The notes: generated by a model from the letters alone, not told the origin. 64,000 nt of DNA from Candidatus Latescibacterota bacterium (GCA_965261395.1 OZ253462.1:3968001-4032000), one strand, 5' to 3'; counted from the stretch's first letter, positions 20,614 through 41,253 are shown. Made by a program: numbers and translations.

Positions 20614-21672
20614 ATGGCAGAAAAGTACCGAGTGGGCATTATCGGCTGCGGCAGCATTGCCAACTACCACATGAACGGCTGGAATGGGGTGGACCAAGTC
20701 GAGGTGGTGGCGCTGGCCGACCCAGTGGCTGTGGCGCGAGAGGAGTTCGGCCAGCGGCATGGGATCGCCGAACGCTATGAGGATTTCCGCCAGATGCTCG
20801 ACGCGGAGGCGCTCGACATCGTCTCGATTTGCACTTGGCACAAGTTGCACGCGCCGATGACGATTGCCGCCTGTGCGCGCAAGCCCAAAGCCGTGCTGTG
20901 CGAAAAGCCCATGGCGACGAGTCTGGGCGATTGCAACGACATGCTAATCGCCGCCCAGCGCAATCGCGTCAAGCTGGCCATTGCCCATCAGCGCCGCTTC
21001 AATCCGGCGTGGACTTTGGCCAAGGAACTAGTAGCAGAAGGGGCCATCGGCGAGGTGCGGCAGGTCAACGCACGCGGCGGACAGGGCTTGCTCAACGATT
21101 GCTCGCACCTGTTGGACATGATGCGCTACGTGATGGGCGATCCACAGGCCGTGTGGGTGATGGGCAATATCGAGCGCAAGACCGAGCGCTTTGAGCGCGA
21201 CATCCCCATTGAGGATCGCAGCTTGTGCGTAGTGCAATTCGACAATGGGGCCATCGGCCAGCTTTTGCAGGAATTGGCCGGCCCGAACTACCAAGGCGGG
21301 ATTTTCTACGGCTCGGAGGGCATAATTGAACTCGACGAGAGCAAGGTACGGCTGCTCAACAGCAAGACTGGCACTTGGGAGGAGCGTCCGGGCGAGGGCG
21401 AGGACCCCAGCGTTGGGCAGCAGCGCGAGATCGTGGAGTGGATCGAAGGCAAGGTCGAGCATCGCGGCCAAGCGGAAAACGGCCGGGCAGCAGTGGAAAT
21501 CATCATGGCCACGTACGAGTCGGCGCGGCTACACGAGGTGACCGCGCTGCCTTTGCGGACGATGGCTTCGCCGCTGGAGGTGATGATCGAGGCGGGGGAT
21601 TTGCCGGTAGAGCGCCCGGGCCGCTACGACATCCGCGCCTTCCTGCTGCGCGGCGAGGATATGCAGCCATAG
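20614..21672 (+). CDS. Gfo/Idh/MocA family oxidoreductase (left flank of island)
   Basis: GIIGCGSIA, LCEKPMA. Confidence 0.92.
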   Translation: MAEKYRVGIIGCGSIANYHMNGWNGVDQVEVVALADPVAVAREEFGQRHGIAERYEDFRQMLDAEALDIVSICTWHKLHAPMTIAACARKPKAVLCEKPMATSLGDCNDMLIAAQRNRVKLAIAHQRRFNPAWTLAKELVAEGAIGEVRQVNARGGQGLLNDCSHLLDMMRYVMGDPQAVWVMGNIERKTERFERDIPIEDRSLCVVQFDNGAIGQLLQELAGPNYQGGIFYGSEGIIELDESKVRLLNSKTGTWEERPGEGEDPSVGQQREIVEWIEGKVEHRGQAENGRAAVEIIMATYESARLHEVTALPLRTMASPLEVMIEAGDLPVERPGRYDIRAFLLRGEDMQP

Positions 21673-21764
21673 GACCAGACGAAAATTGAGACCCATAGGA
21701 GAAAGGTGATGGCGGACTCTCTTGCCGACCAGATTGTGCGAAAGGTCGGGCCGGCCGCCAGTCT
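21451..21764 (+). repeat. Direct repeat A copy 1 (gfo 3' end, intergenic, brxF 5' end)
   Basis: Ungapped alignment to 36710-37023, about 20 mismatches in 314 bp by manual count. Confidence 0.95.
21670..21686 (+). repeat. 17-bp fragment of the 2OG oxygenase 3' end at the island left boundary
   Basis: TAGGACCAGACGAAAAT is identical to 45507-45523 and has one mismatch to 46810-46826. Confidence 0.75.
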
Positions 21765-22191
21765 TTATAATCGTCTGGTGTTGGTCGTCGCACCGGCAGG
21801 CGCAGGCAAAACCACTGCGTTGCAGGATGTGCAGAATCGCACTGGTGCGCCCTTGGTGAATGTCAACCTTGAGCTTTCGCGCCGGATGCTGGAACTGACC
21901 GAGCGCCAGCAGGCCTTGCAGCTACCTCGTCTTCTTCAAGGGATAGCCAGAGTCAGCAATAGTGGCGATGAGACCATCCTACTCGACAACATCGAAGTCA
22001 TATTCGACATTAGTTTGCAACAGGATCCGCTTCGGCTACTCCAGGGACTCTCTCGCAATAAGACTGTGGTGGCCGCATGGAACGGCACCATCGTTGACGA
22101 TTATTTGACCTATGCCGCTCCGGGGCACCCGGAGTACAGACGCTATCCGATGCGTGATTTCCTGGTAGTAAGCCCAGAGATGACGATATGA
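21709..22191 (+). CDS. brxF: BREX-3 P-loop protein BrxF
   Basis: [49 protein letters not shown]...[10 protein letters not shown]; first gene of the BREX-3 layout. Confidence 0.88.
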
Positions 22192-22225
22192 AACCAGCAA
22201 ATTCTACTGTAAGAGAGCAGATGCG

Positions 22226-25200
22226 ATGAAATACGGGGACCTGATCCAATTTGAACCTATTGAGTCCGTGATCCAGTTGCGGGACGCCAACGAAGCCACT
22301 GCCGCCCGGCGGCTTGTCGAGACCTACGTCATCTCCGAGGAGATGGCAGAAAAGCTGACGGGCTTGGTTCTTCCCCAGTTGCAGTTCGATCAGCCCACTG
22401 ACAACAAGGGGCTTCTGGTGGTGGGCAACTACGGCACGGGTAAATCCCACCTCATGTCGGTGATCTCTGCACTTGCGGAGAATCCCGACCTTGCTTCCAG
22501 CCTCAACAACGCCGATGTGGCGGCTGCTGCCGGAAAAATCGGTGGCCGGTTCAAGGTGGTCCGTACCGAGATCGGAGCCGCCACTATGTCCCTGCGAGAC
22601 ATCCTTGTGGCGGAACTGGAAGAGCAGCTTGGTGTGCTGGGAGTAAGCTACAACTTCCCCTCCGCCGATCAGGTAGTCGGCAATAAACGCTCCTTTGAAG
22701 AGATGATGAGCGCGTTCCACCAAGAATTTCCAGACCACGGTCTGCTGCTCGTGGTGGACGAACTGCTCGATTATCTGCGTACCCGCAGGGACCAAGAACT
22801 CGTCTTGGATCTGAGCTTCCTCCGTGAGATCGGCGAGGTTTGTAAAGACCTGCGATTCCGCTTCATAGCCGGCGTCCAAGAAGCCATTTTCGATAGCCCC
22901 CGCTTTTCCTTCGTGGCCGACAGTATCCGCCGTGTGAAGGATCGGTTCGAGCAAGTGCTAATTGCCCGTAGAGACGTCAAGTTCGTGGTGGCGGAGCGGC
23001 TGCTCAAGAAGACAGGCGAGCAACAGGTCAAAATACGCGAATACCTTACGCCCTTCGGCAAATTCTATGGCCAGATGAACGAGCGCATGGATGAGTTCGT
23101 CCGACTCTTTCCGGTGCATCCCGATTATATAGATACCTTTGAGCGGGTGAGCGCTGTGGAGAAGCGCGAGGTGTTGAAGACACTCTCTCTGGCCATGAAG
23201 AAAATGCTCAACCAAGACATGCCAGACGACCATCCCGGGCTTACTGCCTACGACACCTACTGGACTAACCTCCGTGAGAACCCCTCGTTTCGCGCCGTAC
23301 CGGACATCAGGGCGGTCATCGACTGTAGCCAAGTGCTGGAGTCCCGCATCCAGCAGGTGTTCACGCGCCCGGCCTATAAGCCCATGGCACTGCGGCTCAT
23401 CCATGCCCTTTCGGTGCACCGGCTTACCACTGGCGACATCTACGCCACCCTAGGCGCAACGGCCGAGGAGTTGCGGGACGGGCTTTGCCTGTATCAACCG
23501 GGTATTGAGGAGTTGGGCGGCGATCCCGCCGCCGATCTGCTCTCTCAGGTGGAGACCGTCCTCCGGGAAATTCACAAGACGGTCAACGGTCAATTCATTT
23601 CATCGAACTCGGACAACCGGCAGTTCTATCTCGACCTGAAGAAAACCGACGACTTTGATGCGCTGATCGAGAAGCGTGCCGAGAGTCTCGATGACTCCCA
23701 GCTAGACCGTTACTACTACGAGGCTCTGAAACGGGTCATGGAGTGTACGGACCAGACCTACGTCACTGGCTACAAGATCTGGCAGCACGAGCTGGAGTGG
23801 CTGGAGCGGAAGGCAGTACGGCAGGGGTATCTCTTCTTCGGCGCGCCTAACGAACGCTCCACCGCCATCCCACCGAGGGACTTTTACCTCTATTTTATTC
23901 AGCCCCTTGATGCGCCGTATTTCAAGGATGAAAAAAACTCCGACGAGTTATTCCTACGGCTCACCAACATGGACAGCGAGTTCCGCACGGCACTCGGAAA
24001 CTACGCTGCGTCTCTGGACTTGGCTTCCACTTCATCGGGGCACGCCAAGTCCACCTACGAGTCCAAGTCATCCCATTTTCTGCGGGATTTGGTGCAGTGG
24101 CTACAAAAGCATACAACCGACGTTTTCGAGGTCGCCTATCAGGGGCGTTCTAAGTCGCTCACCGAATGGGCCAAGGGTAAGTCGATCCGGGAACTGTCCG
24201 GCCTCGGCTCCCATGAGCGCATCAATTTCCGCGACTTGGTCAACACTATCGCTGGAGTTTGTCTGGAAGCGCACTTTGAGGATCAGGCACCTGAATATCC
24301 CTCCTTCTCGGTGCTCATTACGGGGACCAACCGGGACCAAGCCGCCCAGGACGCACTGAGGGCCATCGCCGGCCAAAACCGCACCAAACAGGCGACAGCA
24401 GTACTGGATGCCCTACAACTGCTCGACGGCGAACGCCTCAATCCTGACAAGTCCAAGTACGCTAAACACATCCTCGGGCTGCTCGAAAAGAAGGGCCATG
24501 GGCAGGTGGTCAATCGCTCCGAATTGATCCAGGAGGACAAGGGGGTGGAGTACATGGATAAGGATCGTCAGCGTCTGGAGCCTGAATGGGTTGCTGTCGT
24601 CCTAGCCGCGCTGGTCTATTCCGGCGATCTGGTTCTCGCCATTCCGGGCAAGAAGTTTGACGCCACCGGCCTGCCGCAATTGGCAGGGACTAGCGTGGAC
24701 GAACTCGCGCAGTTCAAGCACATTGAACGGCCCAAAGACTGGAATCTGCCGGGTCTCAAGGCCCTATTTGAACTGCTCGGTCTCACGCCCGGCTTGGCAC
24801 AGCTAGTCACCCAGAACGAGGAAGACCCGGTCCGACAGTTGCAGAAAGCCATTTCCGAATCAGTGGAAAAGCTGGTGCTCCTGCAGCAGAGCCTGCAACG
24901 CGGTCTGATTTTTTGGGACCGGAACCTGTTGGCCGAGGAAGAAACACAGAAATTCCGCGCACGGCTCGATGAGACTAAGACCTTCCTAGAAACGCTCCAG
25001 GTATATACTTCGCCCGGTAAGCTCAAGAATTTTCGCTACGACGCTCAAGAGGTCGCATCTCATCGGGAGGGGCTCGATTCCCTAGCTGAGATCGAATCCC
25101 TCCAAGGACTAGTGGCCGATCTCGGCACTACTGCGTCCTTCCTCTCCACCGCCGAGGCGGTGCTGCCTGAGAAACACGAGTGGGTGAACAAGACGAAAGA

Positions 25201-25951
25201 GGCGCGTGATGAGGTTCTCGCCCAGCTCGGCGATCCAGACCAGCGCGGCGCAGACTTCCGCCAGCAGATCCAGCGCAAATTGGCTGACCTCAAGACGGAA
25301 TATCTACAGGTATACTTGGGGTTACATGCTAAGGCGCGGTTAGGCGTGAACCACGACAAGCGCAAGATCGAGCTGATGAACGACGAGCGGCTCAAGGTGC
25401 TGAAGAAGCTATCTACTATTGAGTTGATGCCGCGCCAGCACCTTACCGATTTTCAAGATCGACTAGCTGGATTGGAGAGTTGCTTTATCCTCACAGAACA
25501 AGAGATGGACACCGCGCCCGTCTGTCCGCATTGTGGCTTCAAACCAAGCGCGGAGCCGACTATCACTCCTACGGGAACGGTGCTGGACGATTTGGACGAC
25601 GAACTGGATAATCTGGTGGCCAACTGGACCCAAACGCTACTGACCAACTTGGAGGACCCGACTACAAAGGGCGACCTAGACCTGCTCAAACCCGAATCCA
25701 AGAAGCTGGTGAACGGCTTCATCGATAAGCGGGTCCTGCCGGATGAACTCGACCAGGACTTCATCCACGCCTTGGGCGAGGTGCTTTCCGGGCTCCAGAA
25801 GGTACCGGTCAAGACCGCTAACCTGCGCGCTGCCCTGCTCTCCGGCGGTTCACCGGTAACGCCGGTGGAAATGAAGAAGCGGTTCGAGGAGTACCTGGAC
25901 GAACTCACTAAAGGCAAAGAGCCCGACAAGGTAAGGATCGTGCTGGAGTGA
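22226..25951 (+). CDS. brxC: BREX-3 large ATPase (DUF6079, BrxC/PglY equivalent)
   Basis: [18 protein letters not shown] start, GNYGTGKSH Walker A, VVDE Walker B, C-terminal CPHC; operon position. Confidence 0.85.
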
Positions 25952-25955
25952 ACAC

Positions 25956-27806
25956 ATGACGCAGGATGAACTGATAGAACTGCTCAACGCTCATGAATGG
26001 CGCGATGTTGAGTTCAAGGAAGCGCAACGCGCCGTGCCGCGAAATGCCTATGAGACGGTATCTGCTTTTGCAAACACCGAGGGCGGTCATCTTGTGTTCG
26101 GCGTCAAGAAGAGCGGGCAGGACATGGAGATAGTCGGCGTTCTCGATGTCGATAAAGTGCAGAACGAGTTCCTGACTACGTTGCGGCAACCCGACAAGAT
26201 AAGCATGGTGGTGGATGTTCGGGAGGGACTGCACAAGTACGACGACTCGGATCTGCTTATCTTCTACGTGCCTGAAGTGCATCGTTCGCACAAGCCCGTC
26301 TTCCTGAACGGGGATATTCGCCGCTCGTTCGTTCGCAGCGGAGGAAGCGACATTCGCTGCTCGGACAACGAGCGGGATCGATTTCTCATGGACGCGGCGA
26401 TGGAACGATATGACGGCCAATCTGTCAATCTTGACTTGAGTACGGCGCTCGACTTGGAGAGCATTAAGTGGTACCGGAGGACTTATGAAGGACGGCCGGG
26501 GAACCTATCCTATGCAACGCTATCCGACACGGAATTCCTCAACGAGATGGGCTTGCTTGTTGAACAGCACAGCCAAGTATCTCCATCGCGCGCAGCTATT
26601 CTTTTGTTTGGCACCAATGCGGCCTTCCGACAACTTCTGCCACGTCCTGTAGTGGATTGCCAGCGATTTGCGCTGGCTCGTGACAGGGCCGATGCTGGTG
26701 AACGCTGGAATGACCGACTTGTGCTCGACGAGAATCTCATCCGCACTTGGCAGTCCCTTGTCGATTGGTACCAGAGGTTCGCGGAAACGCCGTTCCGAAT
26801 TGATCCCACATCTCTGCAGCGAGATGATACGCCGCCGGACTACCGCGCCTTTCGCGAATCAATGGTCAACCTTCTCATCCACCAGGATTACTCCGATCAT
26901 TCTCGTAAGGCGAGTATCCGCCACTATACCGACCAGACCGTTTTCTGGAATCCCGGCGATGCCTTCGCCACCGATGCTGACCTACTCGAACCTGGTGAAA
27001 AGGAGGTTCGCAATCCCCGAATCGTGACTGCTTTCCGGCGCATCGGGCTGAGCGAGAATGCCGGATGGGGACTGCGCGATGTCTTTCGCAACTGGCAGCA
27101 GTTGGGCTACGTTCCACCCACTATTGCCAATATCAAGAGACACAAGTGCTTTGAGCTTATCCTAAGAAGAGAAGAACTTCTGTCAGAGCAGCAGATTCTT
27201 TTTCAGGCAAGCCTCGGCGTACAACTCACCGACGAACAGGCAAGATTATTCGCATTTGGCTGCCGGGAAAAGACAATCACGCTTTCGCAGATCAAGGCCG
27301 TAACGGGTCTTGCAGGACCGGATGCCATAGAGCTTACCGACGCTTTGGTCACAAAAGTACTCTTCAGAACCATCGAAGCCGACAGAAATTACGCCTTGGC
27401 TGAGCATCTGAAGGATCGGTTTCGTCAAACTGACCAAGCTGCTGACCAACCTGATGCACGGGGTGAGGACTTGGTCACTGTACAAGTGCAGCCCAAGCCG
27501 CCCGACTTGTCCACTGCACAAGTTCATCCTTTGACAGAGTTGTCTGCAACACACTGGAAAATCATTGATTTATGCGATGTGCCCCGTCGTCTGGCCGATA
27601 TTCTGGAAGCTCTTGGCGTGACCAATCGAGGTTATTTCAAGGAACACCACCTTAATCCGTTGATTAAGTCTGGGATTGTGGCAATGACCAACCCGGAGAA
27701 ACCCCGGGCGTCGAACCAGCAATATGTCATTACAGGAGCGGGAGCCCAACTAAAGGCACGGCGCATGTCGGGAGAAGATGACCGAAGTAAGGACAAAGAT
27801 GGCTAA
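25956..27806 (+). CDS. AlbA_2 (Schlafen-like) + HATPase_c_4 + winged-helix protein inserted in BREX operon
   Basis: VEFKEA, SAFANTEGGHLVFGV, RESMVNLLIHQDY, RNPRI...ENAGWG, C-terminal MTNPEKPRASNQQY. Confidence 0.8.
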   Translation: MTQDELIELLNAHEWRDVEFKEAQRAVPRNAYETVSAFANTEGGHLVFGVKKSGQDMEIVGVLDVDKVQNEFLTTLRQPDKISMVVDVREGLHKYDDSDLLIFYVPEVHRSHKPVFLNGDIRRSFVRSGGSDIRCSDNERDRFLMDAAMERYDGQSVNLDLSTALDLESIKWYRRTYEGRPGNLSYATLSDTEFLNEMGLLVEQHSQVSPSRAAILLFGTNAAFRQLLPRPVVDCQRFALARDRADAGERWNDRLVLDENLIRTWQSLVDWYQRFAETPFRIDPTSLQRDDTPPDYRAFRESMVNLLIHQDYSDHSRKASIRHYTDQTVFWNPGDAFATDADLLEPGEKEVRNPRIVTAFRRIGLSENAGWGLRDVFRNWQQLGYVPPTIANIKRHKCFELILRREELLSEQQILFQASLGVQLTDEQARLFAFGCREKTITLSQIKAVTGLAGPDAIELTDALVTKVLFRTIEADRNYALAEHLKDRFRQTDQAADQPDARGEDLVTVQVQPKPPDLSTAQVHPLTELSATHWKIIDLCDVPRRLADILEALGVTNRGYFKEHHLNPLIKSGIVAMTNPEKPRASNQQYVITGAGAQLKARRMSGEDDRSKDKDG

Positions 27807-30603: not shown

Positions 30604-33200
30604 TGGTGAATAAGAACATCTTCAAAACCGACTTTATCAAAAAAACCACTCCTAGCGATCCAGAGACGCTGTTTCTCAGCTTACGAGGACGAGCTCTAGA
30701 GATTAAACACTTGTGGTCCCACCAAGCTGATTTATTGAGAATTTATCACCAAGAATGTTGTAATATACGTAATGTGGCTGTGGAACTCCCTACCGGAGCA
30801 GGGAAGACGCTTGTAGGATTGCTGATCGCAGAATGGCGCCGTCAGTCTCTTGGTACTCGTGTAGCCTATCTTTGCCCCACTATCCAGCTTGCTCGACAGG
30901 TCGGCTCTCAGGCAGATGCTTATGGGATTCAAGCACATGTGTTGGTTGGAAAACAGAGTGATTACCCACAGAGAGAATTTAACGAATATCAATTGGGTCA
31001 CTCTATCGCAGTAACCACCTATAGCGCGGTTTTCAATACCAATCCTCGAATAAAGGATGCCCAGACTTTGATTCTGGACGATGCTCATGCAGGCGAGAAT
31101 TTCATGGTCAGTATGTGGTCAGTGGAAATATTACGTTCAGACATTTCGGGGACCTACCACGCTCTCGTAGAACTTCTACGTAATGAATTGGATTCAGGAT
31201 TTTATTCAGATATTTCAGAGCACACTGACTGGAACCCCACAAAGGCTGGCATAATCGAACTGGTCCCTGCTACTTCAATCCGTAAACACGCAAATGCGAT
31301 TAGAGATTTACTTGATGGGATTCTACAAGAAAATCGATCTCCGAGGTATGCGTGGAATGTTGTCAAAGATCATCTTGCAGCCTGTAACTTTTTCATTTCT
31401 TGGAATTCAATTCTCATCCGACCATTCATCCCGCCAACTCAAACTCATGCCCCCTTTTCGCAAGCAAGTCAACGAGTTTATATGTCGGCGACTCTGGGGG
31501 CTGGTGGGGAATTGGAACGTATTACGGGTGTCAAGTCAATCAGGAGATTGCCACTTCCCGCAGGATGGGACAGGCAAGGCAGCGGACGACGGCTATTTCT
31601 CATCCCTGAACTTGGGATGCCCAATGAGGAGATGATCAAAGTTGTAGAAGGTGCGGTACAGAAGTTTGGCCGAAGCCTCATTCTCGTACCGAGTCGATAT
31701 GACTCTGAAGGAACAGAACTGGTCAACGCCGTTGAGCAATTAGATATTGAGATTCTCCGTGCTTCTAACATAGAGAATAGCCTTGAGCCATTTCTGAAAA
31801 ATGAGAAAGCAGCTCTGCTGCTTTCTCGCTACGATGGTTTAGACTTGCCAGATGAAGCGTGTCGTCTGCTTGTAATTGGCGGCCTGCCTAGTGGAACGAA
31901 TCTACAAGAGATGTTTCTGTGGGCCAAAATCGCGGCGTCTTCTCTATTGAGAGATCGCGTGGTAACACGCTTTACTCAGGGGGTCGGTCGCTGTACACGC
32001 TCTGACAATGACTATGCGGTTGTATTCTTGATCGGGCGGCGGTTGGTTGATTTTATTCTAAAAAGTGAAAATCGTCGCATTTTGAATCCCGAGCTACAAG
32101 CGGAACTTGAATTCGGTATAGAAAACTCAAGAGACAAAAGTGTCGAAGATTTTAAAAACTTGTGGAAAGCGTTCTTGTCAATGGGTGACGATTGGGAATA
32201 CGCAGAGGATGCGATACTCACCCTTCGTGATAATTATTCTCGTCACAATGATCCGGTATCACAACAACTAAACTCTGTCGTTGCTGACGAGGTTGCATAT
32301 CTCTATGCAATTTGGTCTGATGATTTTGAGGTCGCACTTGAATATGCAAGAAAGGTCGCAGACGCACTCGATGGCGATGAAGTAAAGGCATATCGGGCTT
32401 GGTGGTACTACCTCTCGTCCGAAGCCGCGATGGCTCTCCATGAGGCCACTAAAGAGGAAGCCTATCAAGACACCGCTCGCGATTTACTGAAACGTGCCTC
32501 AAGATGTTGTATCGGCGTCAGTTGGTTTGCACGTTTAGGGCGGTCATTGGGTCCGAAGTACGAAACGCCAGAAGTTGATGAGATGTCTGCGGTAGCTGTG
32601 GAGACAATCCGGGAATATTTGGCTAATTTGGGTGCTGTTGGAGGGCAGTTTGAGAAAAAACTCAGCCAGGTCAAGGAGAATCTCCAGTCCACTAACCACA
32701 AGGCATTTCATCAAGGTCTCAAAGGACTCGGCGAGATGCTGGGGTTCCAGGCAGAATTACCTGAAGGGAATGCTGCACCTGACTGCATTTGGTCCATTAG
32801 AAACCTCGTCTATGTTGTACATGAGGCGAAATCAGAACACACGTCAAAGGAGCCGATAGGCGTCAGGGACATCCGACAGGCTCAAAGCCATGCCAAATGG
32901 ATTCGTGCTAATCGGAAATGTGAAGCCAATACCGAGGTTTTGTGTCTAATTGAAAGTCCTCGCACGACAGTTGATCAAGAAGCCATTGTTCACGCTGATT
33001 CTCTTCGCCATATCACACCTAGACAATTGAAAGAAATCTTTGATAAAATCGCTGCAATTCTCCGTCGAGTTAGGTCGAAATTGGTCGATCTCAGTGACGA
33101 GAAAGTTCTTGAGGAACTGTTCCGCGAGCTATCAGAAGGCAACCTTGTTCCTAGGCAATTACTGGACCGTCTATCCCAGAAGCTAGTCAAAGACATGTAA
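30600..33200 (+). CDS. Hna-like SF2 helicase with C-terminal PD-(D/E)XK nuclease
   Basis: ELPTGAGKT, DDAH, MSAT, QGVGRCTR helicase motifs; C-terminal APDCIW...HEAKS; visibly more AT-rich than flanks. Confidence 0.7.
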   Translation: MMVNKNIFKTDFIKKTTPSDPETLFLSLRGRALEIKHLWSHQADLLRIYHQECCNIRNVAVELPTGAGKTLVGLLIAEWRRQSLGTRVAYLCPTIQLARQVGSQADAYGIQAHVLVGKQSDYPQREFNEYQLGHSIAVTTYSAVFNTNPRIKDAQTLILDDAHAGENFMVSMWSVEILRSDISGTYHALVELLRNELDSGFYSDISEHTDWNPTKAGIIELVPATSIRKHANAIRDLLDGILQENRSPRYAWNVVKDHLAACNFFISWNSILIRPFIPPTQTHAPFSQASQRVYMSATLGAGGELERITGVKSIRRLPLPAGWDRQGSGRRLFLIPELGMPNEEMIKVVEGAVQKFGRSLILVPSRYDSEGTELVNAVEQLDIEILRASNIENSLEPFLKNEKAALLLSRYDGLDLPDEACRLLVIGGLPSGTNLQEMFLWAKIAASSLLRDRVVTRFTQGVGRCTRSDNDYAVVFLIGRRLVDFILKSENRRILNPELQAELEFGIENSRDKSVEDFKNLWKAFLSMGDDWEYAEDAILTLRDNYSRHNDPVSQQLNSVVADEVAYLYAIWSDDFEVALEYARKVADALDGDEVKAYRAWWYYLSSEAAMALHEATKEEAYQDTARDLLKRASRCCIGVSWFARLGRSLGPKYETPEVDEMSAVAVETIREYLANLGAVGGQFEKKLSQVKENLQSTNHKAFHQGLKGLGEMLGFQAELPEGNAAPDCIWSIRNLVYVVHEAKSEHTSKEPIGVRDIRQAQSHAKWIRANRKCEANTEVLCLIESPRTTVDQEAIVHADSLRHITPRQLKEIFDKIAAILRRVRSKLVDLSDEKVLEELFRELSEGNLVPRQLLDRLSQKLVKDM

Positions 33201-33254
33201 ATCACGGTGGTGAAGGAAGCAAAGACAGGAAGGGATGGGAATAAAACTTGAGGA

Positions 33255-35294
33255 ATGAATGAATACCAGATGGTAAAAAATGGACTCACGAGTAACTGGC
33301 GTGACCAGATTCTCCGCGAATTCACGCCCAACGTAGCCCGTCTGACACTGGTCGCCGACCCTGACGGGCTACTTTTGGAAGAAGGCATTCTTGCGGGCAT
33401 ACGCGAGCGAGGATTTGAACTGATTCCGTTCGAGGATCATATCGCCTTTCGGTATGCCTACGAGACCAAGTTCCGTTCCCGTTGGGATCGAGGCGAGCAA
33501 ACAGAACTGGTGGTCGTACTGCACTCCGAGGCCCGTGACCTTAATAGCTTGCCATACGACCTGCTTCAGGCTGGTCGTCGGCTGTCATTCAGCTTGGGCG
33601 AGATTTTCCCCAACCTGAGCTATCCGGTTGTGGCCGCCTTGGACCGGCGAGACTTGGACGCGCTGGACGATGCCCAAGAGCAGTACGCGCCCGATGTGCT
33701 GGGAGACAACGCGACCATAAAATTTGTCCTGCGGCATGTCTTCGATATTGAGCCTGAACTCATCAAGGAGCCATCCGATTTGTTGCGCGTGCTGCTGCGC
33801 CGCCATCACCGAGAACAGCGGGTTCCGGCTTTGTTGGACGAGCGATTTGTCCAGTTGCTTCGCCAGCAGCATGGCTTTGAAGACTGGCCACTCGAAACGA
33901 TCATTTCAGACCGGCAGGCATTTTTCGCCTTTCTCCAAGAACGCTGGCCCATTTTTCTCGACCGGGCAGCGAGCGAAGAAGGTCTCGGCGTTCGGGAGCG
34001 CACGGAACCTTATGCTTTAGAGTTTTCCGGCCCTACGGATTTGCCATTCGATCACGACGATATCCGTATTTATATAGACAACCTGTTTCTTGAAGGACTG
34101 CTTGAAGCCGTTCCATACGAACAGGCCGAATCGTTGTCAAAGCCTTGGCTCGTTATTGGCATCCGAAGGGATGAGCAGGCGGACCGAGAGCGCCGCGTGG
34201 ATGGCCTGCTCTGCACTTTGGCCTCCACTATTCCGCAAGAGGATGCACAACACGACGATTGGTTCCGCTTTGCCAAGACTTGGGCCGAACTGGTGGCCTT
34301 ATCTATGGAATCGGATGCGATTTTGCCAGAGCCTGTACGTCAAAAGATGGAGACGTTGCAAGCACGAATTGACGATGCACTTGTATCTTGGCTGGCAAAC
34401 CGCTATGCGGGATTGAGCAGTCTGCCGCCAGTTCCGCCGGTCATGCTGCACCACATTCCCCGTTTCCTTGCTAGGCATGTCAAGGATGCCAAGGAACACA
34501 AGGTGGCGTTCGTCCTAGTAGATGGCCTTTCGCTAGATCAGTGGATCGTCGCCCGCAAGGAGCTTGCCAAGCAACGCCCCGAGTACCGTTTCCGAGAGCA
34601 CGCGGTGTTTGCTTGGATACCCACCATCACCTCGGTTTCGCGCCAGGCAGCCTTTGCCGGCAAGCTACCTAGCTACTTTCCAAACAGTATTGACACCACG
34701 AACAAGGAGCCAGCCTTATGGACGAAATTTTGGGTGGACCAAGGGCTGACACAGCAAGAAGTCGGATATGCCAAAGGGCTTGGGGACGGTGCACTGGATC
34801 GCGTAGAGGAGATGATTGCTCGACCACGGATGCGCGTCGTTGGTTTGGTTGTTGACAAAGTAGATAGGATCATGCACGGCATGGAGCTTGGCACTGCGGG
34901 GATGCACAATCAAGTTCGGCAGTGGGCCAATCAACCGTTCATGGGGAACCTCATTGACCTGTTGCTGGATAATGGATTCCGCGTCCACCTATCTTCGGAT
35001 CATGGAAACATCGAAGCCGCCGGATGCGGGCGACCTACCGAGGGCGCAGTTGCAGACCAGCGTGGTGAACGGGCGCGCGTGTACTCCAATTCAGTGCTGC
35101 GGGGCCGAGTCAAAGAGCGATTCCTTGACGCCTTGGAATGGCCGTCGATTGGGCTGCCGGAAGACTATTTACCTCTACTGGCTCCTGGCCGTTCTGCATT
35201 CGTCCATGAGGGCGAACGCCTTGTCGGCCATGGTGGCGCATCGCTTGAAGAACTCATTGTCCCCTTTGTGCAGATCGACAGGAGGGGGCCATGA
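33255..35294 (+). CDS. pglZ: BREX-3 phosphatase PglZ
   Basis: WRDQIL...LTLVADPDGLL N-terminus; VDGLSLDQW, PTITSVSRQA, SSDHGN, HGGASLEELIVP. Confidence 0.92.
   Translation: MNEYQMVKNGLTSNWRDQILREFTPNVARLTLVADPDGLLLEEGILAGIRERGFELIPFEDHIAFRYAYETKFRSRWDRGEQTELVVVLHSEARDLNSLPYDLLQAGRRLSFSLGEIFPNLSYPVVAALDRRDLDALDDAQEQYAPDVLGDNATIKFVLRHVFDIEPELIKEPSDLLRVLLRRHHREQRVPALLDERFVQLLRQQHGFEDWPLETIISDRQAFFAFLQERWPIFLDRAASEEGLGVRERTEPYALEFSGPTDLPFDHDDIRIYIDNLFLEGLLEAVPYEQAESLSKPWLVIGIRRDEQADRERRVDGLLCTLASTIPQEDAQHDDWFRFAKTWAELVALSMESDAILPEPVRQKMETLQARIDDALVSWLANRYAGLSSLPPVPPVMLHHIPRFLARHVKDAKEHKVAFVLVDGLSLDQWIVARKELAKQRPEYRFREHAVFAWIPTITSVSRQAAFAGKLPSYFPNSIDTTNKEPALWTKFWVDQGLTQQEVGYAKGLGDGALDRVEEMIARPRMRVVGLVVDKVDRIMHGMELGTAGMHNQVRQWANQPFMGNLIDLLLDNGFRVHLSSDHGNIEAAGCGRPTEGAVADQRGERARVYSNSVLRGRVKERFLDALEWPSIGLPEDYLPLLAPGRSAFVHEGERLVGHGGASLEELIVPFVQIDRRGP
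33288..33368 (+). repeat. Direct repeat C copy 1 (pglZ 5' end)
   Basis: Aligns to 41173-41253 with 5 mismatches in 81 bp; last ~50 bp identical. Confidence 0.92.
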
Positions 35295-36037
35295 ACGGCC
35301 GGCAAGCCCAGATTGGCTTCAGTCAACGTATCCGACTTGAGTGGTTCGAGCAGACAGCTAATATGATACTGGCTGGAAACGATAAGACTGCCATCAACGA
35401 CTCTCTGCAAGCTCTTCTGGAAGATAAGATCTCAGTAGGCGGTCAGGCCGTCAGAGGCGGCAGGGAGAAAGTGATTACCATCCTGTTGAAGACTTGGTTG
35501 ACCGTACCTCGTGAATTAGAGACGCTGCGGGACGAGGGCTTGGACATCTTCCAGAGGCTACCTCGTAAAGAACGCATTGTTATTCACTGGGGCATGGTCT
35601 TGGCAGTCTATCCGTTTTGGGGTGCAATCGCCGCTGATACTGGCAGGCTTCTACGCCTACAGGGCACAGCCGCAGCAGCCCATGTTCAGCGACGGGTCAA
35701 GGAGCAATACGGAGAGCGCGAAGCCGCGTCACGGGCTGCCCGGCGTGTGCTTCGATCATTCATCGATTGGGGAGTTTTGAACGAGACGGGGGACAAAGGC
35801 GTCTATGCCCAAGGGGAACAGTACTCCGTTGAGGAACCTAGGCTTATCGCCTGGCTAATGGAGGCGTCTCTCCGCTCCCGTGTGCATAGGGCTGCCGCCA
35901 TTAAGGATCTGCTCGAAAGTCCAAGCATCTTTCCGTTTCAATTAGCCCACATCTCAGCCGAGCAGGTGGCGTCCCTATCCCCTCGCTTAGACATCCTACG
36001 ACACGGTCTGGATGACGATCTGGTGATGCTACCGTGA
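35291..36037 (+). CDS. brxA: BREX-3 BrxA-like protein
   Basis: ATGA-coupled to pglZ, terminal position of the type 3 layout; IGFSQRIRLEW, HWGM...YPF, YGERE..SRAARRVLRSFIDWG. Confidence 0.65.
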   Translation: MNGRQAQIGFSQRIRLEWFEQTANMILAGNDKTAINDSLQALLEDKISVGGQAVRGGREKVITILLKTWLTVPRELETLRDEGLDIFQRLPRKERIVIHWGMVLAVYPFWGAIAADTGRLLRLQGTAAAAHVQRRVKEQYGEREAASRAARRVLRSFIDWGVLNETGDKGVYAQGEQYSVEEPRLIAWLMEASLRSRVHRAAAIKDLLESPSIFPFQLAHISAEQVASLSPRLDILRHGLDDDLVMLP

Positions 36038-36116
36038 CTACCGGACAAGTCCCCAAGTCCACTTCAGCGATACCAGACAACGGATAAGGGCGAACCAACT
36101 TCGGAGATAGGTAGTC

Positions 36117-36494
36117 ATGTCGAGACTCGAAACACCCCTCACACGACGCTATTGGCGAGAGATCGGCGGCACCCTGATAGAGGAGTTCCCGGCCGTCCGT
36201 TCTGGCCCGAATCAAGGTAGGAGATTGCTTGATGGCGTCGTGCTCTTGGATTCTCCACACTTGATTGCGAACCATCGGGAAGTTGAAATCGAGAATCGAG
36301 ATATTGTGGTGATTCAAACAAAGGCCAGCCGACTGGGCATGTATCTCCTGGGTCAGGCGCTATTCTCGCGACATCTGATGATGCCGTTTCGGCCCAGTAG
36401 CGTAGACACGGTTGCAATTTGCACCAAAGGTGATGCCGTGCTGGAACCTTTGGCTGCGGAATATGGAATAAAGGTGGTGGTGTACCAGGACTAA
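36117..36494 (+). CDS. Small putative PD-(D/E)XK-fold nuclease
   Basis: RRLLDGVVL...IVVIQTKASRL...LLGQAL resembles the D...(E/Q)xK...GQ pattern of NucS/Mrr-like nucleases. Confidence 0.5.
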   Translation: MSRLETPLTRRYWREIGGTLIEEFPAVRSGPNQGRRLLDGVVLLDSPHLIANHREVEIENRDIVVIQTKASRLGMYLLGQALFSRHLMMPFRPSSVDTVAICTKGDAVLEPLAAEYGIKVVVYQD

Positions 36495-36709
36495 CTCAGC
36501 AGGCGTGCCGAGGTCTTGTCGGTCTCTTCGGCCTGCACGCTCGGGGCTTGGTGCGATACGGATTGAGGTAGCGACAGGCCATCAAACCGTATTGGGAGTC
36601 CTGCCGAAGAAGCCGCAAACCCTCTTCAGGGAGCTTGTCCGGCCCGTGCGAGCGTTTATCGCCTTGACAGAGAGTCCAAAAAAGAGGCTTTATTTTCCTT
36701 ATACTCGAT

Positions 36710-37023: not shown

Positions 37024-37025
37024 AA

Positions 37026-37125
37026 AGCTGTCGCGGGAAAAATCCCGGAGACGATCCTCCAAGAGGATTCTAAACTCCTCATGTGGTATGACCAAGCAAT
37101 AACACGAATGGGAGATGAGGCATGA
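37026..37125 (+). pseudogene. Direct repeat B copy 2: orphan pglX C-terminus
   Basis: Encodes AVAGKIPETILQEDSKLLMWYDQAITRMGDEA* versus AVAEKIPETILQEDSKLLMWYDQALTRTGEDG*; its stop overlaps ATG 37122. Confidence 0.9.
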
Positions 37126-39890
37126 AAGAGTGGGGCTGGAACGGTGCGCGTTGGTGGAAGTGTGATTTTCACACGCATACCCCGGCATCCAACGATTATG
37201 GGAAGGGCCAGAAGCAGACGGCTCTTCAGGAGCGATCCCCCAAGGAATGGCTGCTCGACTACATGCGTGCCGGCGTTGATTGTATTGCGATCACAGACCA
37301 TAACACCGGGGCGTGGATCGACGTACTGCGAAACGCCATGGAAGAGCTGATAGAGGATGGCCATTCAGATTACCGCAAACTGTATATTTTTTCTGGAATG
37401 GAAATCTCTATATCTGGCGGAATCCATTTGCTTGCGATTTTCGATCCTTCAAAGACATCTTCGGACCTTGACGCCCTTCGAGGCGCAGTGGAGTATGGAG
37501 GAACGCCGGGGCAAAGCGATGACGTCACACGCAAGGCGTTCGTCGACGTAATCAACACAGTCACTTCAGCCGGAGGTATAGCGATCCCTGCTCACGTGGA
37601 TGAGGAAAGTGGGCTTTTTCATCGACAGAAGGGGAATACACTAGATCAGGCATTGAACTGCAAAGATATCTTCGCCATGGAGTTGGTGGACCCAGCGTCT
37701 GAGAAACCACAGCTTTATATTGACAAAGGCCTACGCTGGGCTGAAATCCTTGGTTCAGACTCCCATCATCCTTCCGGTGTCGCGGGACAGTCATATCCGG
37801 GCAGCCACTTTACTTGGGTCAAGATGGGGTCGCCCAGCGTGGAGGGATTGCGGTTAGCCTTGTTGGACGGAGAGCTTTCCGTACGTCGGTCCGACCAGGA
37901 TACGGATGACCCAAACGAACACGCACCGTTGGTGTTGGATTCTATTGAGGTTTCGCAAGCGCGCTACATGGGTTGCTCCCAAATCTTCACTATTGGGTTC
38001 AACCCATGGTTCAACGCTATCATCGGAGGCCGAGGCACAGGTAAATCGACTGTTGTCGAGTTCCTTCGTACTGCCCTTCGACGGGAGGCTGAATTGCCGG
38101 AGACGTTGCAACCGGAGTTCGAACAGTATAACCGAGTCTATCAAGACCGAGAAGACAGCGGACTGCTTACAGAAGATGCTGCCATCCGAGTGATTTGCCG
38201 AAAAGACAGCGACCGGTTTCGCGTCCAGTGGAATAAGGCCGGCGGCCTTGAACCTATTGAACAAGAAGTGAATGGACAATGGCAGCGCGCAGAAGGCGAT
38301 ATTCAGCAACGATTTCCCGTGCGAATCTACAGTCAGAAGCAAGTGTTCCAACTCGCCAGAACTCCGCTTGCGTTGCTTAAAAATATCGATGAGGCCCCAG
38401 AGGTTGGTTACCATTCTTGGTCTGAAAAATGGAAAGTGCAGGAAAGCCGCTTTCTTTCTCTGCGTGCTAAGGCTAGAGAAATCAAGGTCGGTCCTGGCGA
38501 GGAGCAGCGTCTTCGGGGAGAGCTGGACGACGTGGAACGAAAACTGGCGATTTTTGAACAGTCGGGACACACCGAAATCCTAAAGTCCTTCCAAAAACGG
38601 AAACGCCAGCAGCGGGATGTCGAGGTATGGGAAGAAAGCTGGACTGGCGTGGGAGAGCAGTTGCGCGAAGTCGCGGCTGAAATAGTACCGGATCTGCTGG
38701 ATGAAACTTCTTTCGACTCAGATGCAGCGTCAGACAATGAATTGCAGAGACGTGCTGCTAAGACGCACGACCATCTAAACAAAATCCGCAAAGCGGTCGA
38801 AGTGCTTGCATCGCAAGCGGATGACATTGTCATCGAGTGGCAGAAAAGCAGGGATGAGTCGTCTTGGAAACAGAGCGTTGAGGCTGCCGCGCAAGCCTAC
38901 CAGGAATTGACAGAGAATCTGTCCCGAGAAGGGGCTGGCGACCCTGCGGCCTACGGCGAACTTGTACAGCGTCGGCAAGTCATTGAGCAACGGCTTTCGG
39001 AAGTGGACGAACGTAAAAAACAGGTTGATGATCTGAATAATCAGGCAGATGCACACTTGCAGCATTTGCTGGAAATTCGCCGGGAGTTGACGGCGTCTCG
39101 TCGATCATTTCTCAATTCCGTCCTAAGCGACAACCCATATATCCAGATACAGGTCGCCCCTTATGGTGCCCGCGAGACGGTCGAAAGCGAGTTTCGCCGA
39201 TTGCTCCAAAGAGAGGATGGGACGTTTGAGAAAGACATTGGATCGCCGAATGACGGGGGATTGCTTGGCGAACTTTATGAGCAGGATGCCGGTGCCGAGG
39301 TGATTGAAGAGAATCTTTTGAACATCAAGACCCGTGTCACAGAGATCGCGTTGGGTGAATACGGCACGGGAACAGTGGCAGATCGGCGTTTTGCCAACCA
39401 TGTAGGCAATCTCCCGCCTGAAGCTATTGATCGCCTTGACCTGTGGTTTCCAGAGGATTCTTTAGAGGTCCAATACAGCGCAAGGGGCGATGGACAGCGT
39501 TTTCGCTCAATACAAGAAGGTTCGCCTGGTCAGAAGACCGCAGCGCTCTTGGCGTTTCTGCTTTCCTACGGAAACGAACCACTGATCTTAGACCAGCCGG
39601 AGGACGATTTGGACAACCACCTGATCTACGGTTTGATCGTGACCCAATTGCGGGCGATCAAACGCCGTCGGCAGGTCATTGTGGTCACGCACAACGCGAA
39701 TATAGCCGTCAACGGTGACGCCGAATTGGTAGTAGCCCTCACAGCACGCGGCAGGGAAACGCAGAAAGAGTGCGAAGGCAGCCTGCAAGAGCAACAGGTG
39801 AGAGAGACCATTTGTGCAGTGATGGAGGGTGGTCGTAAGGCCTTTGAGGATCGGTATCGCCGCATTGCGCTGGAAGGACGCTATGTTTAA
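37122..39890 (+). CDS. PHP domain + ABC/SMC-type ATPase (TrlF family, Ppl-like defence protein)
   Basis: PHP motifs DFHTHT, ITDHN, PAH, GSDSH; GGRGTGKST, coiled coil, SPGQK, LILDQPEDDLD, VTHN. Confidence 0.85.
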   Translation: MKEWGWNGARWWKCDFHTHTPASNDYGKGQKQTALQERSPKEWLLDYMRAGVDCIAITDHNTGAWIDVLRNAMEELIEDGHSDYRKLYIFSGMEISISGGIHLLAIFDPSKTSSDLDALRGAVEYGGTPGQSDDVTRKAFVDVINTVTSAGGIAIPAHVDEESGLFHRQKGNTLDQALNCKDIFAMELVDPASEKPQLYIDKGLRWAEILGSDSHHPSGVAGQSYPGSHFTWVKMGSPSVEGLRLALLDGELSVRRSDQDTDDPNEHAPLVLDSIEVSQARYMGCSQIFTIGFNPWFNAIIGGRGTGKSTVVEFLRTALRREAELPETLQPEFEQYNRVYQDREDSGLLTEDAAIRVICRKDSDRFRVQWNKAGGLEPIEQEVNGQWQRAEGDIQQRFPVRIYSQKQVFQLARTPLALLKNIDEAPEVGYHSWSEKWKVQESRFLSLRAKAREIKVGPGEEQRLRGELDDVERKLAIFEQSGHTEILKSFQKRKRQQRDVEVWEESWTGVGEQLREVAAEIVPDLLDETSFDSDAASDNELQRRAAKTHDHLNKIRKAVEVLASQADDIVIEWQKSRDESSWKQSVEAAAQAYQELTENLSREGAGDPAAYGELVQRRQVIEQRLSEVDERKKQVDDLNNQADAHLQHLLEIRRELTASRRSFLNSVLSDNPYIQIQVAPYGARETVESEFRRLLQREDGTFEKDIGSPNDGGLLGELYEQDAGAEVIEENLLNIKTRVTEIALGEYGTGTVADRRFANHVGNLPPEAIDRLDLWFPEDSLEVQYSARGDGQRFRSIQEGSPGQKTAALLAFLLSYGNEPLILDQPEDDLDNHLIYGLIVTQLRAIKRRRQVIVVTHNANIAVNGDAELVVALTARGRETQKECEGSLQEQQVRETICAVMEGGRKAFEDRYRRIALEGRYV

Positions 39891-41139
39891 CAGCCCGGAA
39901 GAACTGTTGCAGAAGATACGCCTTGGAGAAGATACTTCGCTGGAACTCAAGGCCGTCCGGTTCAGGGGCGACCGGGTTTCCGGTCCTGGTCGCGATGAGT
40001 TGGCCGACGAGTTGGCAGCTATCGCCAATACTCACGACGGTGTACTTGTCTTGGGCGTAGACGACAAGACGCGAGACATCATAGGCATTCCGATAGACCA
40101 CCTTGATGCTGTCGAAAGCTTTGTCTATGAGATTTGCAATGAGAGCATCACGCCGCCAGTCCATTTTCGTTCTTTCCGTATGCAGCTCCCTGATGCCACG
40201 GGGAATCTCCGGTCCGTGCTCAACGTAGAAATCCCACGCAGCCTTTTTGTCCACAGGAGCCCTGGAGGATATTTCTTTCGGCAAGGAAGTTCAAAACGAG
40301 AGATGCCGCCCGATTATCTGACACGGCTGTCCCAGCAACTAAGCCAAGTTCGGCTGATTCGATTCGAGGAACAATCCGTGCCGCAATCGAGCAGGGACGA
40401 CTTATCCGAAAAGTTGTGGGCCAACTATATAACAAGATCTGATGAATCCGCGGGTATCGTGCTCCTTAAACGCGGTCTTTTGTCGAAGGAAGAAAGCGGG
40501 GCCGTCCGGGCTTCGGTTGCTGGCATTCTGGTCTGTTGCGAGGAGCCAGAGCGTTTTTTGCCTAATGCCTATATTGAAGCCGTGCGCTATCGCGGAAAAA
40601 AGCGGGATTCCAATTATCAGATAGACGCCCAAAAAATTCGCGGCCCGCTGAATCGACAGATCGAACAAGCTATGACCTTTCTCAGGAAAAACCAGACGGT
40701 CTCAGCCGTAAAAATTCCGCATCGGGTCGAAGTGCAGCAGTTCAGCGAAAGAGCGGTTTTTGAAGCGATTGTCAATGCTGTGGCTCACCGCGATTATTCC
40801 ATTTTCGCCTCGAAAATACGGTTCTTCATGTTTGAAGATCGGTTGGAAATCTACTCGCCAGGTACTCTCCCGAATACCGTGACCATTGACAGCATCTCCC
40901 TCCGTCAGGCTACCCGAAACGAACTGATTACCAATCTGCTTACAGAGACGCCAGTGGCGGGAACGGTCGGCGATGTGGGACGTAGTTTTTACATGGAAAA
41001 GCGAGGCGAGGGTGTTCCAATCATTTTTGACGAGAGCGAAAAACTTTCCGGAAAGAAGCCTGTTTATCGACTTATTGACGACTCCGAACTGCTACTGACC
41101 ATTTTTTCGAGGGGCACGGAACGTGCGGATGAGCACTGA
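39883..41139 (+). CDS. AlbA_2 + HATPase_c_4 (RecG-C-like) protein
   Basis: GEDTSLELK, AAIANTHDGVLVLGVDD, EAIVNAVAHRDY, EIYSPG, RNELI, MEKRGEG. Confidence 0.85.
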   Translation: MFNSPEELLQKIRLGEDTSLELKAVRFRGDRVSGPGRDELADELAAIANTHDGVLVLGVDDKTRDIIGIPIDHLDAVESFVYEICNESITPPVHFRSFRMQLPDATGNLRSVLNVEIPRSLFVHRSPGGYFFRQGSSKREMPPDYLTRLSQQLSQVRLIRFEEQSVPQSSRDDLSEKLWANYITRSDESAGIVLLKRGLLSKEESGAVRASVAGILVCCEEPERFLPNAYIEAVRYRGKKRDSNYQIDAQKIRGPLNRQIEQAMTFLRKNQTVSAVKIPHRVEVQQFSERAVFEAIVNAVAHRDYSIFASKIRFFMFEDRLEIYSPGTLPNTVTIDSISLRQATRNELITNLLTETPVAGTVGDVGRSFYMEKRGEGVPIIFDESEKLSGKKPVYRLIDDSELLLTIFSRGTERADEH

Positions 41140-41172
41140 TGTAAGCGGTCGGTATTTAGGATCGGATGCACG

Positions 41173-41253
41173 ATGAGTAACTGGCGCAACCAGATTCTTC
41201 ACGAATTCACGCCCAACGTAGCCCGTCTGACACTGGTCGCCGACCCTGACGGG
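41173..41253 (+). pseudogene. Direct repeat C copy 2: orphan pglZ start
   Basis: ATG-initiated MSNWRNQILHEFTPNVARLTLVADPDG, then abrupt junction into the antisense strand of the sialidase-fusion gene. Confidence 0.9.

Follow-up and report, generated by a model that had tools for sequence, protein, structure and literature searches.

The gfo/FAD-BNR interval and its two BREX-3 copies

The DNA considered here, called the window, is a stretch of 64,000 nucleotides (nt) from a Candidatus Latescibacterota bacterium (GCA_965261395.1 OZ253462.1:3968001-4032000). It contains a type 3 bacteriophage exclusion (BREX-3) locus, copy 1, at 21.7-36.0 kb, and after it, at 36.7-41.25 kb, copy 2, a skeleton in which short pieces of BREX-3 genes bracket an intact pair of genes for TrlF- and TrlG-like proteins. 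These pieces, the arms, repeat parts of copy 1. The arms and the two skeleton genes are:

21451..21764, plus strand: arm A1, gfo tail, 33-nt spacer and first brxF codons
36710..37023, plus strand: arm A2, relic gfo tail, spacer and ~18 brxF codons
30504..30603, plus strand: arm B1, last 33 codons of pglXI
37026..37125, plus strand: arm B2, relic of the last 33 pglX codons, in a frame different from that of the brxF head
33288..33368, plus strand: arm C1, PglZ residues 12-38
41173..41253, plus strand: arm C2, 27 codons of a relic PglZ head that are joined to the clipped 3' end of the FAD-BNR gene
37122..39890, plus strand: intact TrlF/Ppl-type protein, PHP + ABC/SMC-like ATPase (NCBIfam TrlF_fam_ATP; PADLOC Ppl, 4.5e-143)
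39829..41139, plus strand: intact TrlG-like AlbA_2 + HATPase_c_4 protein (Pfam), overlapping the trlF end

Comparison of the window with itself bears out what a sequence-only reading had described, three direct repeats in the same order and orientation in both copies. Repeat A (21451-21750/36710-37009) is 93% identical, and its alignment extends to 21764/37023 (314 nt) with sharp edges; repeat B (30504-30603/37026-37125) is 85% identical over 100 nt, and repeat C (33290-33368/41175-41253) 95% identical over 79-81 nt. Three collinear matches of these lengths are far beyond chance. Family scans confirm the gene identities that had been given to the arms (gfo tail and brxF head, pglX tail, pglZ head). 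The gfo parts of A1 and A2 differ at 12 positions, 9 of them third codon positions (9 synonymous and 3 non-synonymous codons), and the two pglX tails differ at 15 positions, 11 of them third positions. Unbroken identity extends over at most 50 nt in A, 26 nt in B and 52 nt in C, and with the identities given above and mostly third-position differences there is no homogenisation of the arms. Since the differences are mostly synonymous, the divergence would have arisen while both copies were functional genes in different lineages. To judge from their sequences, then, the arms are diverged alleles and not decayed recent duplicates.

From left to right, the skeleton consists of a gfo tail, ~18 brxF codons, 33 pglX codons, trlF, the trlG-like gene and 27 pglZ codons. 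As had been claimed, it lacks everything between A and B, which are separated by 2 nt, and everything after C. On its left, A2 begins abruptly against a unique 215-nt spacer. The brxF head and pglX tail do not share a reading frame, and the short open reading frame (ORF) produced by their fusion stops 19 nt before the trlF ATG. The trlF ORF and the helicase ORF of copy 1 each begin at an ATG that overlaps the pglX TGA (37122 and 30600), again as first described.

Both cargo genes named earlier for copy 2, a PHP-ATPase and an AlbA_2 protein, are present and are full length against their homologues. The first scores 639 bits against the TrlF family NF045780 (cut-off 350); its PADLOC Ppl match is full length, and NCBIfam Ppl_antiphage gives 568.9 bits, below the cut-off of 1000. 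The ratio of non-synonymous to synonymous substitution rates (Ka/Ks) of TrlF is 0.24 against locus L017, a complete BREX-3 described below. The TrlG-like protein has the same two Pfam domains as Photorhabdus TrlG. No separate small trlR-like regulator ORF was seen upstream, where the brxF-head/pglX-tail relic lies instead. The closest homologues of the window's TrlF (68-83% identical) are found outside its genus, and the best same-genus match is 42%. A second Ppl/TrlF paralogue, 41% identical, lies elsewhere in the same genome (G000:C1:5063340-5066135), and similar paralogues occur in several congeners. Within trlF, a same-length diverged variant of 37318-37690 co-occurs in the public sequencing runs X1 and X5, and 37316-37514 is the sole part of the skeleton that does not align with L017, which suggests that 37318-37690 may be a mosaic or hypervariable patch in TrlF.

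Copy 1 and the genes that flank the two copies are:

20614..21672, plus strand: gfo, GFO/IDH/MocA oxidoreductase, left core gene of the hotspot (Pfam; orthologues at 95-97% amino acid level in 10 congeners)
21706..22191, plus strand: brxF, BREX-3 P-loop protein (PADLOC BrxF, 9.5e-75; NCBIfam BREX_3_BrxF)
22226..25951, plus strand: brxC (full-length PADLOC BrxC; Pfam DUF6079)
25956..27806, plus strand: Schlafen/AlbA_2 + HATPase_c_4 + Fic-like_C protein in the brxC-pglX slot (Pfam)
27778..30603, plus strand: pglXI methyltransferase (PADLOC PglXI), true start probably slightly downstream
30600..33200, plus strand: DinG-like SF2 helicase, cargo of copy 1 (PADLOC PDC-S28)
33255..35294, plus strand: pglZ, BREX-3 type (PADLOC PglZ; NCBIfam BREX_PglZ_3)
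35291..36037, plus strand: brxA (PADLOC BrxA, 4.4e-100)
36038..36094, plus strand: short segment after brxA that also adjoins gfo in the BREX-less region G009
36117..36494, plus strand: orf125, hypothetical protein conserved at the hotspot in five congeners
36495..36709, no strand: unique 215-nt spacer ending at the sharp left edge of A2
41207..43546, minus strand: FAD-oxidoreductase/BNR gene (FAD-BNR), right core gene of the hotspot, convergent, with its native last codons and stop lost

The core of copy 1 is complete: BrxF, BrxC, PglXI, PglZ and BrxA all give full-length PADLOC matches in one co-oriented cluster and in order, and NCBIfam BREX_3_BrxF and BREX_PglZ_3 score above cut-off. The earlier description of a full BREX-3 holds for these five core genes and does not extend to BrxHII. 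The PADLOC library recognised true BrxHII in three other loci (L037, L051, L061), yet neither the ORF in the pglXI-pglZ slot nor any other scanned ORF of the window matched a BrxHI or BrxHII model, and the same-genus loci compared by tblastn gave no BrxHII match either. Copy 1 thus appears to be an intact BREX-3 that lacks BrxHII. It also carries an embedded gene that the sequence-only reading left unmentioned, the Schlafen-type gene at 25956-27806.

The label "Hna-like" given to the helicase of copy 1 is replaced here. Over its full length (residues 14-865, profile positions 13-843 of 846) the protein matches PDC-S28 with an E value of 1.6e-122, and it is of the DinG-like kind; among its 5 PADLOC matches at E<=0.001 there is no Hna name, a negative to be read with the content of the library in mind, in which an Hna model is unconfirmed. 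The C-terminal ~380 residues hold no Pfam domain. The best homologue among 60 relatives is 29% identical, and none is close.

Three further parts of copy 1 and its surroundings deserve mention. PglXI is 58-64% identical in amino acids between congeners (compared with L038, L049 and L050), whereas BrxC, PglZ and BrxA are ~90% identical; pglXI is alignable at ~80% only in its N-terminal ~450 nt and its C-terminal ~1.1 kb, a pattern suggestive of an exchange of the specificity region. In five congeners orf125 adjoins FAD-BNR and is conserved at 88-90% of amino acids. Pfam, PADLOC and NCBIfam give no match to it, and it falls in hypothetical clusters of the atlas, where small PD-(D/E)XK-like proteins, NucS_C and XisH, are weak leads (0.84) that assign no function. 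Nothing informative in the genome or among the fetched loci matches the 215-nt spacer (36495-36709).

BREX-3 relics and cargo in relatives and public contigs

The orthologous site was fetched in 13 same-genus regions, 10 of which contain both gfo and FAD-BNR. The comparison indicates a hypervariable defence hotspot between these convergent genes, in which the window's insert relative to empty sites is everything from ~21682 to ~41252. The two genes are ~18 nt apart in G022, G009 holds a 58-nt remnant corresponding to window 36038-36094, and G002 and G001 have 0.7 kb and 2.5 kb of other sequence at the site. Complete BREX-3 with an empty pglX-pglZ slot is present in G020 and also in G007, while the BREX-3 of G018 has three small ORFs in the slot and a second gfo tail after brxA; the fetched regions of G007 and G018 do not include FAD-BNR. 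In G029, a brxF head (to window-equivalent 21827) is fused to a pglX tail (from 30477), behind which come a cargo of three genes and orf125. The first of these cargo ORFs and the first ORF in the slot of the full G018 BREX-3 are 81% identical. A three-gene module of L037 (GHKL ATPase / DUF4325 / PIN) was considered as the same module and rejected, its first ORF being 22% identical.

The gene of the brxC-pglX slot, together with orf125, is all that three of these regions keep of the insert. It is complete in G011 (L042) and G012 (L044), both of which retain a 58-nt brxC tail and the latter also a 20-codon pglX head, and is reduced to its C-terminal part in G021 (L041). The Schlafen-like slot gene is thus a second case of cargo outliving BREX at this hotspot.

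The right end of the skeleton is also clarified by these regions. In 10/10 relatives, homology to the window sets in 13 nt to the right of the native FAD-BNR stop, so the window has lost the last codons of this gene. What is left of the ORF runs on for 47 nt into the antisense of C2, and the join has a 3-nt microhomology (GGC) common to both parents. It therefore lacks the exact coincidence of skeleton end and island border that would have hinted at site-specific recombination, an idea rejected because the native stop and last codons are missing. The right junction has every appearance of an ordinary deletion.

Other repeats and genes of the region also vary in place. G010 has a leucine-rich repeat (LRR) gene between gfo and FAD-BNR, and the window has one beyond FAD-BNR (43827-45416, compared with L045 and G010); the LRR gene appears to be another movable module of the hotspot. 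The 17-mer TAGGACCAGACGAAAAT from the gfo stop occurs 4 times in the window (21670-21686, 36929-36945, 45507-45523 and 46810-46826) against 0.06 expected, and elsewhere in the genome a search at <=2 mismatches gave only one more match, a loose one with 2 mismatches. Some copies are followed by a 63-nt element (43592-43654 and 46831-46893), which is also present at island borders in G018, G007 and G010. The sequence downstream of gfo may have been duplicated locally, with the copies marking module boundaries.

Close TrlF homologues (62-83% identity) turned up at 21 loci when one genome per species was scanned, and in 20 of these the AlbA_2 partner is adjacent. Four of the 21 (L017, L018, L021 and L037) are complete BREX-3 loci with TrlF and TrlG between pglX and pglZ. 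A phylum survey adds another full locus of this kind, L065, and L067, where TrlF-TrlG-BrxHII-pglZ are preceded by a contig end. L017 and the skeleton are collinear over 37038-41253, a stretch that takes in the pglX tail and the pglZ head, at 89.6% and 90.5% nt identity.

Seven of the 21 loci hold BREX remnants only, each with breakpoints of its own (L020, L024, L025, L027, L032, L033, L036). In L027 (Bryobacterales), brxF 1-63 runs into pglX 797-937 and pglZ 13-93 into brxA 194-247, and L024 (Spirochaetes) retains brxF 1-35. L020 retains pglX 887-922 and pglZ 13-130; L036, in the same genomic context, retains pglZ 13-56 alone, and the two lengths of PglZ head point to erosion. No remnant is present in six loci whose flanks reach at least 1.5 kb on each side, and four others are too short on one side for a judgement. 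When G029 and a public contig joint, 22234->30458, are counted, loss of brxC-pglX with retention of the first operon codons and the downstream cargo is a repeated, independent event. In L037, L033 and L025, stacked cargo modules are separated by a further pglX tail that has diverged. That of L037 is identical to the locus's own pglX end at 141 of 167 positions and keeps the ATGA overlap with trlF, while that of L033 carries internal stops. Other disrupted loci were also seen. In L073 (G137; 5918-7926), a BREX-3 relic has BrxHII 35-324 joined directly to PglZ 544-676, followed by brxA; pglX is interrupted by a DDE_Tnp_1_4 transposase in G113 (L068 2658-4022) and by an opposite-strand 510-residue ORF that has no family match in L018 (6447-7979, minus strand).

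That variable defence cargo occupies the slot after pglX had been stated before, and the point can be extended. The phylum survey covered 168 genomes, 16 of them with a type-3 PglZ, and was joined to the genome and metagenome scans. The slot is empty in G020 and G007, and its contents elsewhere are as follows: the PDC-S28 helicase in the window; TrlF and TrlG in L017, L018, L021, L037, L065 and L067; three small ORFs in G018; an Mrr_cat-STAND NTPase in L064 and L066; an OLD-like ABC ATPase with a partner of 342-349 residues in L070 and L068, which were scanned, and in L069 and L071 by ORF sizes alone; and BrxHII alone in L072. Every one of the 10 metagenome loci with sequence upstream has the PDC-S28 helicase directly after pglX; in 5 of these it is followed by ~2.9 kb and then pglZ, and the ~2.9-kb gene is BrxHII in the 2 that were scanned. 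The junction of pglX with pglZ or brxHII is a highly variable cargo slot within one phylum, with six cargo types.

Natural variation at the locus is also visible in assembled public contigs from four runs, compared with 21350-41349. Such contigs miss rare variants, 15 of 23 joints are listed, and coverage depth sums all organisms in a run; some runs that contain the stretch carry sponge metagenome labels. A BREX-less joint, 21668->36039, which places gfo before orf125, has a depth of 83 in X1, 5 in X5 and 21.6 in X6. Joint 33664->41253/4 (X1 79.8, X5 7.5, X15 8.1) gives a relic with a longer pglZ head beside FAD-BNR, and joint 30596->33284 (X1 11.5) an empty slot. In X6, the helicase bins have a depth of 0.3-18 against 35-130 for other parts of BREX-3. 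This helicase depth and the empty-slot joint indicate that cargo at the pglX-pglZ slot is polymorphic in nature. In X1, the depth of the skeleton (~180-270) roughly equals that of BREX-3 (~115-145) plus that of the BREX-less joint (83), depths that fit two haplotypes, both carrying TrlF/TrlG. Joint 21488->37030 has short sides of 29-34 nt and is assigned no reading.

Origin of the skeleton

Full TrlF/TrlG BREX-3 loci, recurrent gutting with varied breakpoints and the clipped FAD-BNR gene together lead to the conclusion that the skeleton is most probably a decayed second BREX-3 allele, lying beside the intact copy 1 in the gfo/FAD-BNR hotspot, whose TrlF/TrlG pair outlived the core and whose arms are scars. 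An allele trimmed by deletion had been mentioned by the sequence-only reading as the simpler alternative. It is now strongly supported, by the full loci, by independent skeletons and by a right endpoint that falls inside FAD-BNR.

The following course of events would account for the structure. Two diverged BREX-3 alleles would have come to lie side by side between gfo and FAD-BNR, and the ancestor of copy 2 would have been an allele with TrlF/Ppl and a TrlG-like protein in its pglX-pglZ slot. One illegitimate deletion would have extended from brxF codon ~18 to pglX codon ~909, and the other from pglZ codon ~39 up to a point four codons ahead of the FAD-BNR stop. trlF and trlG would then stand directly behind the old operon 5' end, where expression as a stand-alone defence of the abortive-infection type could still be possible. 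The tandem alleles probably arose by additive, one-sided recombination. Either a homologous crossover on one flank was combined with an illegitimate join on the other, or a circularised fragment integrated by a single crossover; both routes would add DNA without replacing the resident relic, and both would duplicate the gfo tail. The additive scars found elsewhere (the gfo-tail repeat of G018 and the pglX tails of L037, L033 and L025) are of the same kind as those of the window. A, B and C would accordingly be deletion or integration scars rather than maintained recombination handles, and the locus looks like ordinary turnover in a defence hotspot, not like a purpose-built swappable cassette.

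Several points weigh against this account. The BREX-less haplotype defined by joint 21668->36039 keeps orf125 and A2, which means that the duplication of the gfo tail may predate the arrival or loss of copy 1 and that the history may be more complex. B2 matches B1 at 85/100 positions and the L017 pglX tail at 75/100; because B2 is not nearer to the L017 tail than to B1, the exact parental allele is unsampled. A promoter/terminator consensus scan of 36000-41400 found no more sites than in shuffled sequence, which leaves expression from the 5' end that the old operon has kept a prediction. Contigs from RNA libraries cover parts of the skeleton, and such cover is no sign of transcription. None of the contig rows listed bridges 37023/37026 or 41253 in this exact assembly. 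Finally, the order of events and the mechanism that produced the tandem are inferred.

The alternative that survives best, though it is unlikely, is that TrlF/TrlG travels between genomes with short pglX-tail and pglZ-head flanks, which serve as handles for entry into any resident BREX-3; the arms would then matter for horizontal spread while being unused inside a genome. It would explain why pglX-tail remnants accompany cargo in the stacked arrays of L037, L033 and L025, why arm-bounded TrlF/TrlG lacking a BREX core occurs in another family (L020, L036) and in other phyla (L027, L024), and why the closest relatives of the window's TrlF (68-83%) lie outside the genus, with 42% for the best same-genus match. 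However, plain decay of full loci predicts the same pattern. Moreover, the breakpoints are idiosyncratic, the tail in L033 has internal stops, six amply flanked loci are armless, and the position of the arms beside a gfo tail shows that the ancestor was a full locus in this same hotspot. A broader proposal, that BREX-3 is a recombinase-free cassette platform in which the conserved pglX 3' end and the pglZ or brxHII 5' end are handles that move with accessory defence modules, modules are added, stacked (with pglX tails as punctuation in L037, L033 and L025) and re-donated, and the skeleton is a local reservoir for returning TrlF/TrlG to the live BREX-3, is decidedly doubtful.

Quite improbable is the idea put forward in the sequence-only reading, that the skeleton is a stored donor whose cargo is swapped with the helicase by gene conversion through B and C, with A-A recombination excising copy 1. 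The arms are indeed collinear and in the same orientation, and their identical runs of 50, 26 and 52 nt could just support RecA-type recombination; cargo at the slot differs between lineages, and a BREX-less haplotype that keeps TrlF/TrlG co-occurs in public runs. Yet arms that are 93%, 85% and 95% identical, with mostly synonymous differences, are unlike repeats that recombine often, and their lengths are not conserved (118 PglZ residues in L020 against 44 in L036, and no arms in 6 of 21 loci). The skeleton does not seem to be silent by design, since its intact cargo stands behind an operon 5' end. The BREX-less joint 21668->36039 differs from the predicted A-A product, and no such product and no B-B or C-C exchange is among the 15 of 23 joints listed, a test made insensitive by contigs that drop rare variants. 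The scan of the larger ORFs from 16.6 to 45.4 kb, 15 in all, gave no recombinase, integrase or transposase family. Cargo at the slot turns over between lineages; swapping of cassettes within a genome has no supporting evidence. The same reading had held that absence of recombinants, together with absence of similar arm-bounded skeletons from relatives, would leave a one-off decayed duplication; several such skeletons, with different breakpoints, exist.

It is very hard to credit that the tandem was stitched together by an assembler from a BREX-3 haplotype and a skeleton haplotype, even with a metagenome-assembled genome as the source and at least two haplotypes in public runs (joints 21668->36039 and 33664->41253/4), given a genome that is a single 6.55-Mb contig, an independent RNA-library contig (a gfo tail, ~210 other letters, then 36051-36747) that crosses 36709/36710 by 38 nt, a DNA contig of 36141-36739 with zero mismatches, a skeleton depth in X1 near the sum of the BREX-3 and BREX-less depths, as if both haplotypes carried the skeleton, and analogous structures in other closed genomes (brxF-head/pglX-tail in G029 and L027, gfo-tail repeat in G018). 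Of the junctions that had been singled out for spanning, 36709/36710 is bridged by that public contig, and 37023/37026 and 41253 are unbridged in the contig rows listed.

Comparison with known systems

The decayed-allele interpretation gives a clear, scar-dated example of defence-locus turnover, in which repeated loss of the large BREX core is outlived by small embedded modules (TrlF/TrlG, the Schlafen-like gene and the three-gene module), which apparently still lie behind the old operon 5' end. It connects BREX-3 with a poorly understood operon, the TRL operon of Photorhabdus, and offers a marker for annotation: short pglX, pglZ or brxF fragments flanking a gene pair would identify a former BREX-embedded defence module.

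The published type 3 BREX, brxF-brxC-pglXI-brxHII-pglZ-brxA, shares BrxF, BrxC, PglXI, PglZ-3 and BrxA with the window in the same order and differs in its BrxHII, which the scanned ORFs of the window do not match. According to the main text of a 2026 survey, BrxHII is present in 77% of type-3 BREX taxa and absent from 23%; many auxiliary or backup effectors are embedded in BREX core loci; Schlafen + minimal-kinase + winged helix-turn-helix (wHTH) proteins occur in at least 1017 taxa; and OLD-ABC modules are also BREX-embedded (PMC12839542). The Schlafen-type and ABC-ATPase modules of the window match the widespread BREX-linked effectors presented there. Thus, embedded BREX effectors as such are already published. 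The term 'PHP' is absent from that main text, the supplements to which may list such modules, and the TrlF/TrlG pair may so far be undescribed as BREX-3 cargo. The literature found on Ppl and PHP domains likewise contained nothing specific about their being embedded in BREX.

In Photorhabdus laumondii, the TRL operon (trlR-trlF-trlG) restricts growth by temperature: loss of TrlG, an AlbA_2+HATPase_c_4 protein, allows growth at 36 C, and the published phenotype is not phage defence (bioRxiv 10.1101/2020.06.02.129163). Both the operon and the window have a large PHP protein, carrying a histidinol phosphatase annotation, followed by an AlbA_2+HATPase_c_4 protein. They differ in that the window has a pglX remnant in place of a trlR-like upstream ORF, and its module is BREX-3-embedded or BREX-3-derived. 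The phenotype of TrlG loss would fit a growth-arresting effector that is held in check, as in abortive infection.

The single-gene anti-phage system Ppl has reportedly been validated as a defence. The TrlF of the window shares with it a full-length PADLOC Ppl match (E 4.5e-143) and the architecture of PHP plus ABC/SMC-like ATPase. It differs in being paired, as a type, with a Schlafen-like partner (20/21 loci) and in its NCBIfam score (569 against the cut-off of 1000).

Silent-cassette and shufflon systems, such as pilE/pilS and phase-variable hsdS, keep truncated copies with short homologous flanks beside an expressed locus. The window likewise has a truncated copy beside a locus, with short homologous flanks. 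However, these flanks are diverged and unhomogenised, there is no recombinase family in the 15 scanned ORFs, and the 'silent' copy is a complete, probably expressed module unrelated to the cargo of copy 1.

Two further parallels are general ones. Defence-island hotspots show polymorphism of content between fixed core genes, and homology-facilitated illegitimate recombination leaves junctions with little or no homology on one side and partial gene remnants. The window shares the presence/absence polymorphism, the one-sided low-homology junctions and the gene remnants, and differs in an outcome that was additive, the relic being kept and the anchor tail duplicated, instead of a replacement. The survival of cargo, the pglX-tail scars and the six cargo types are consistent with the known principles of defence-island turnover.

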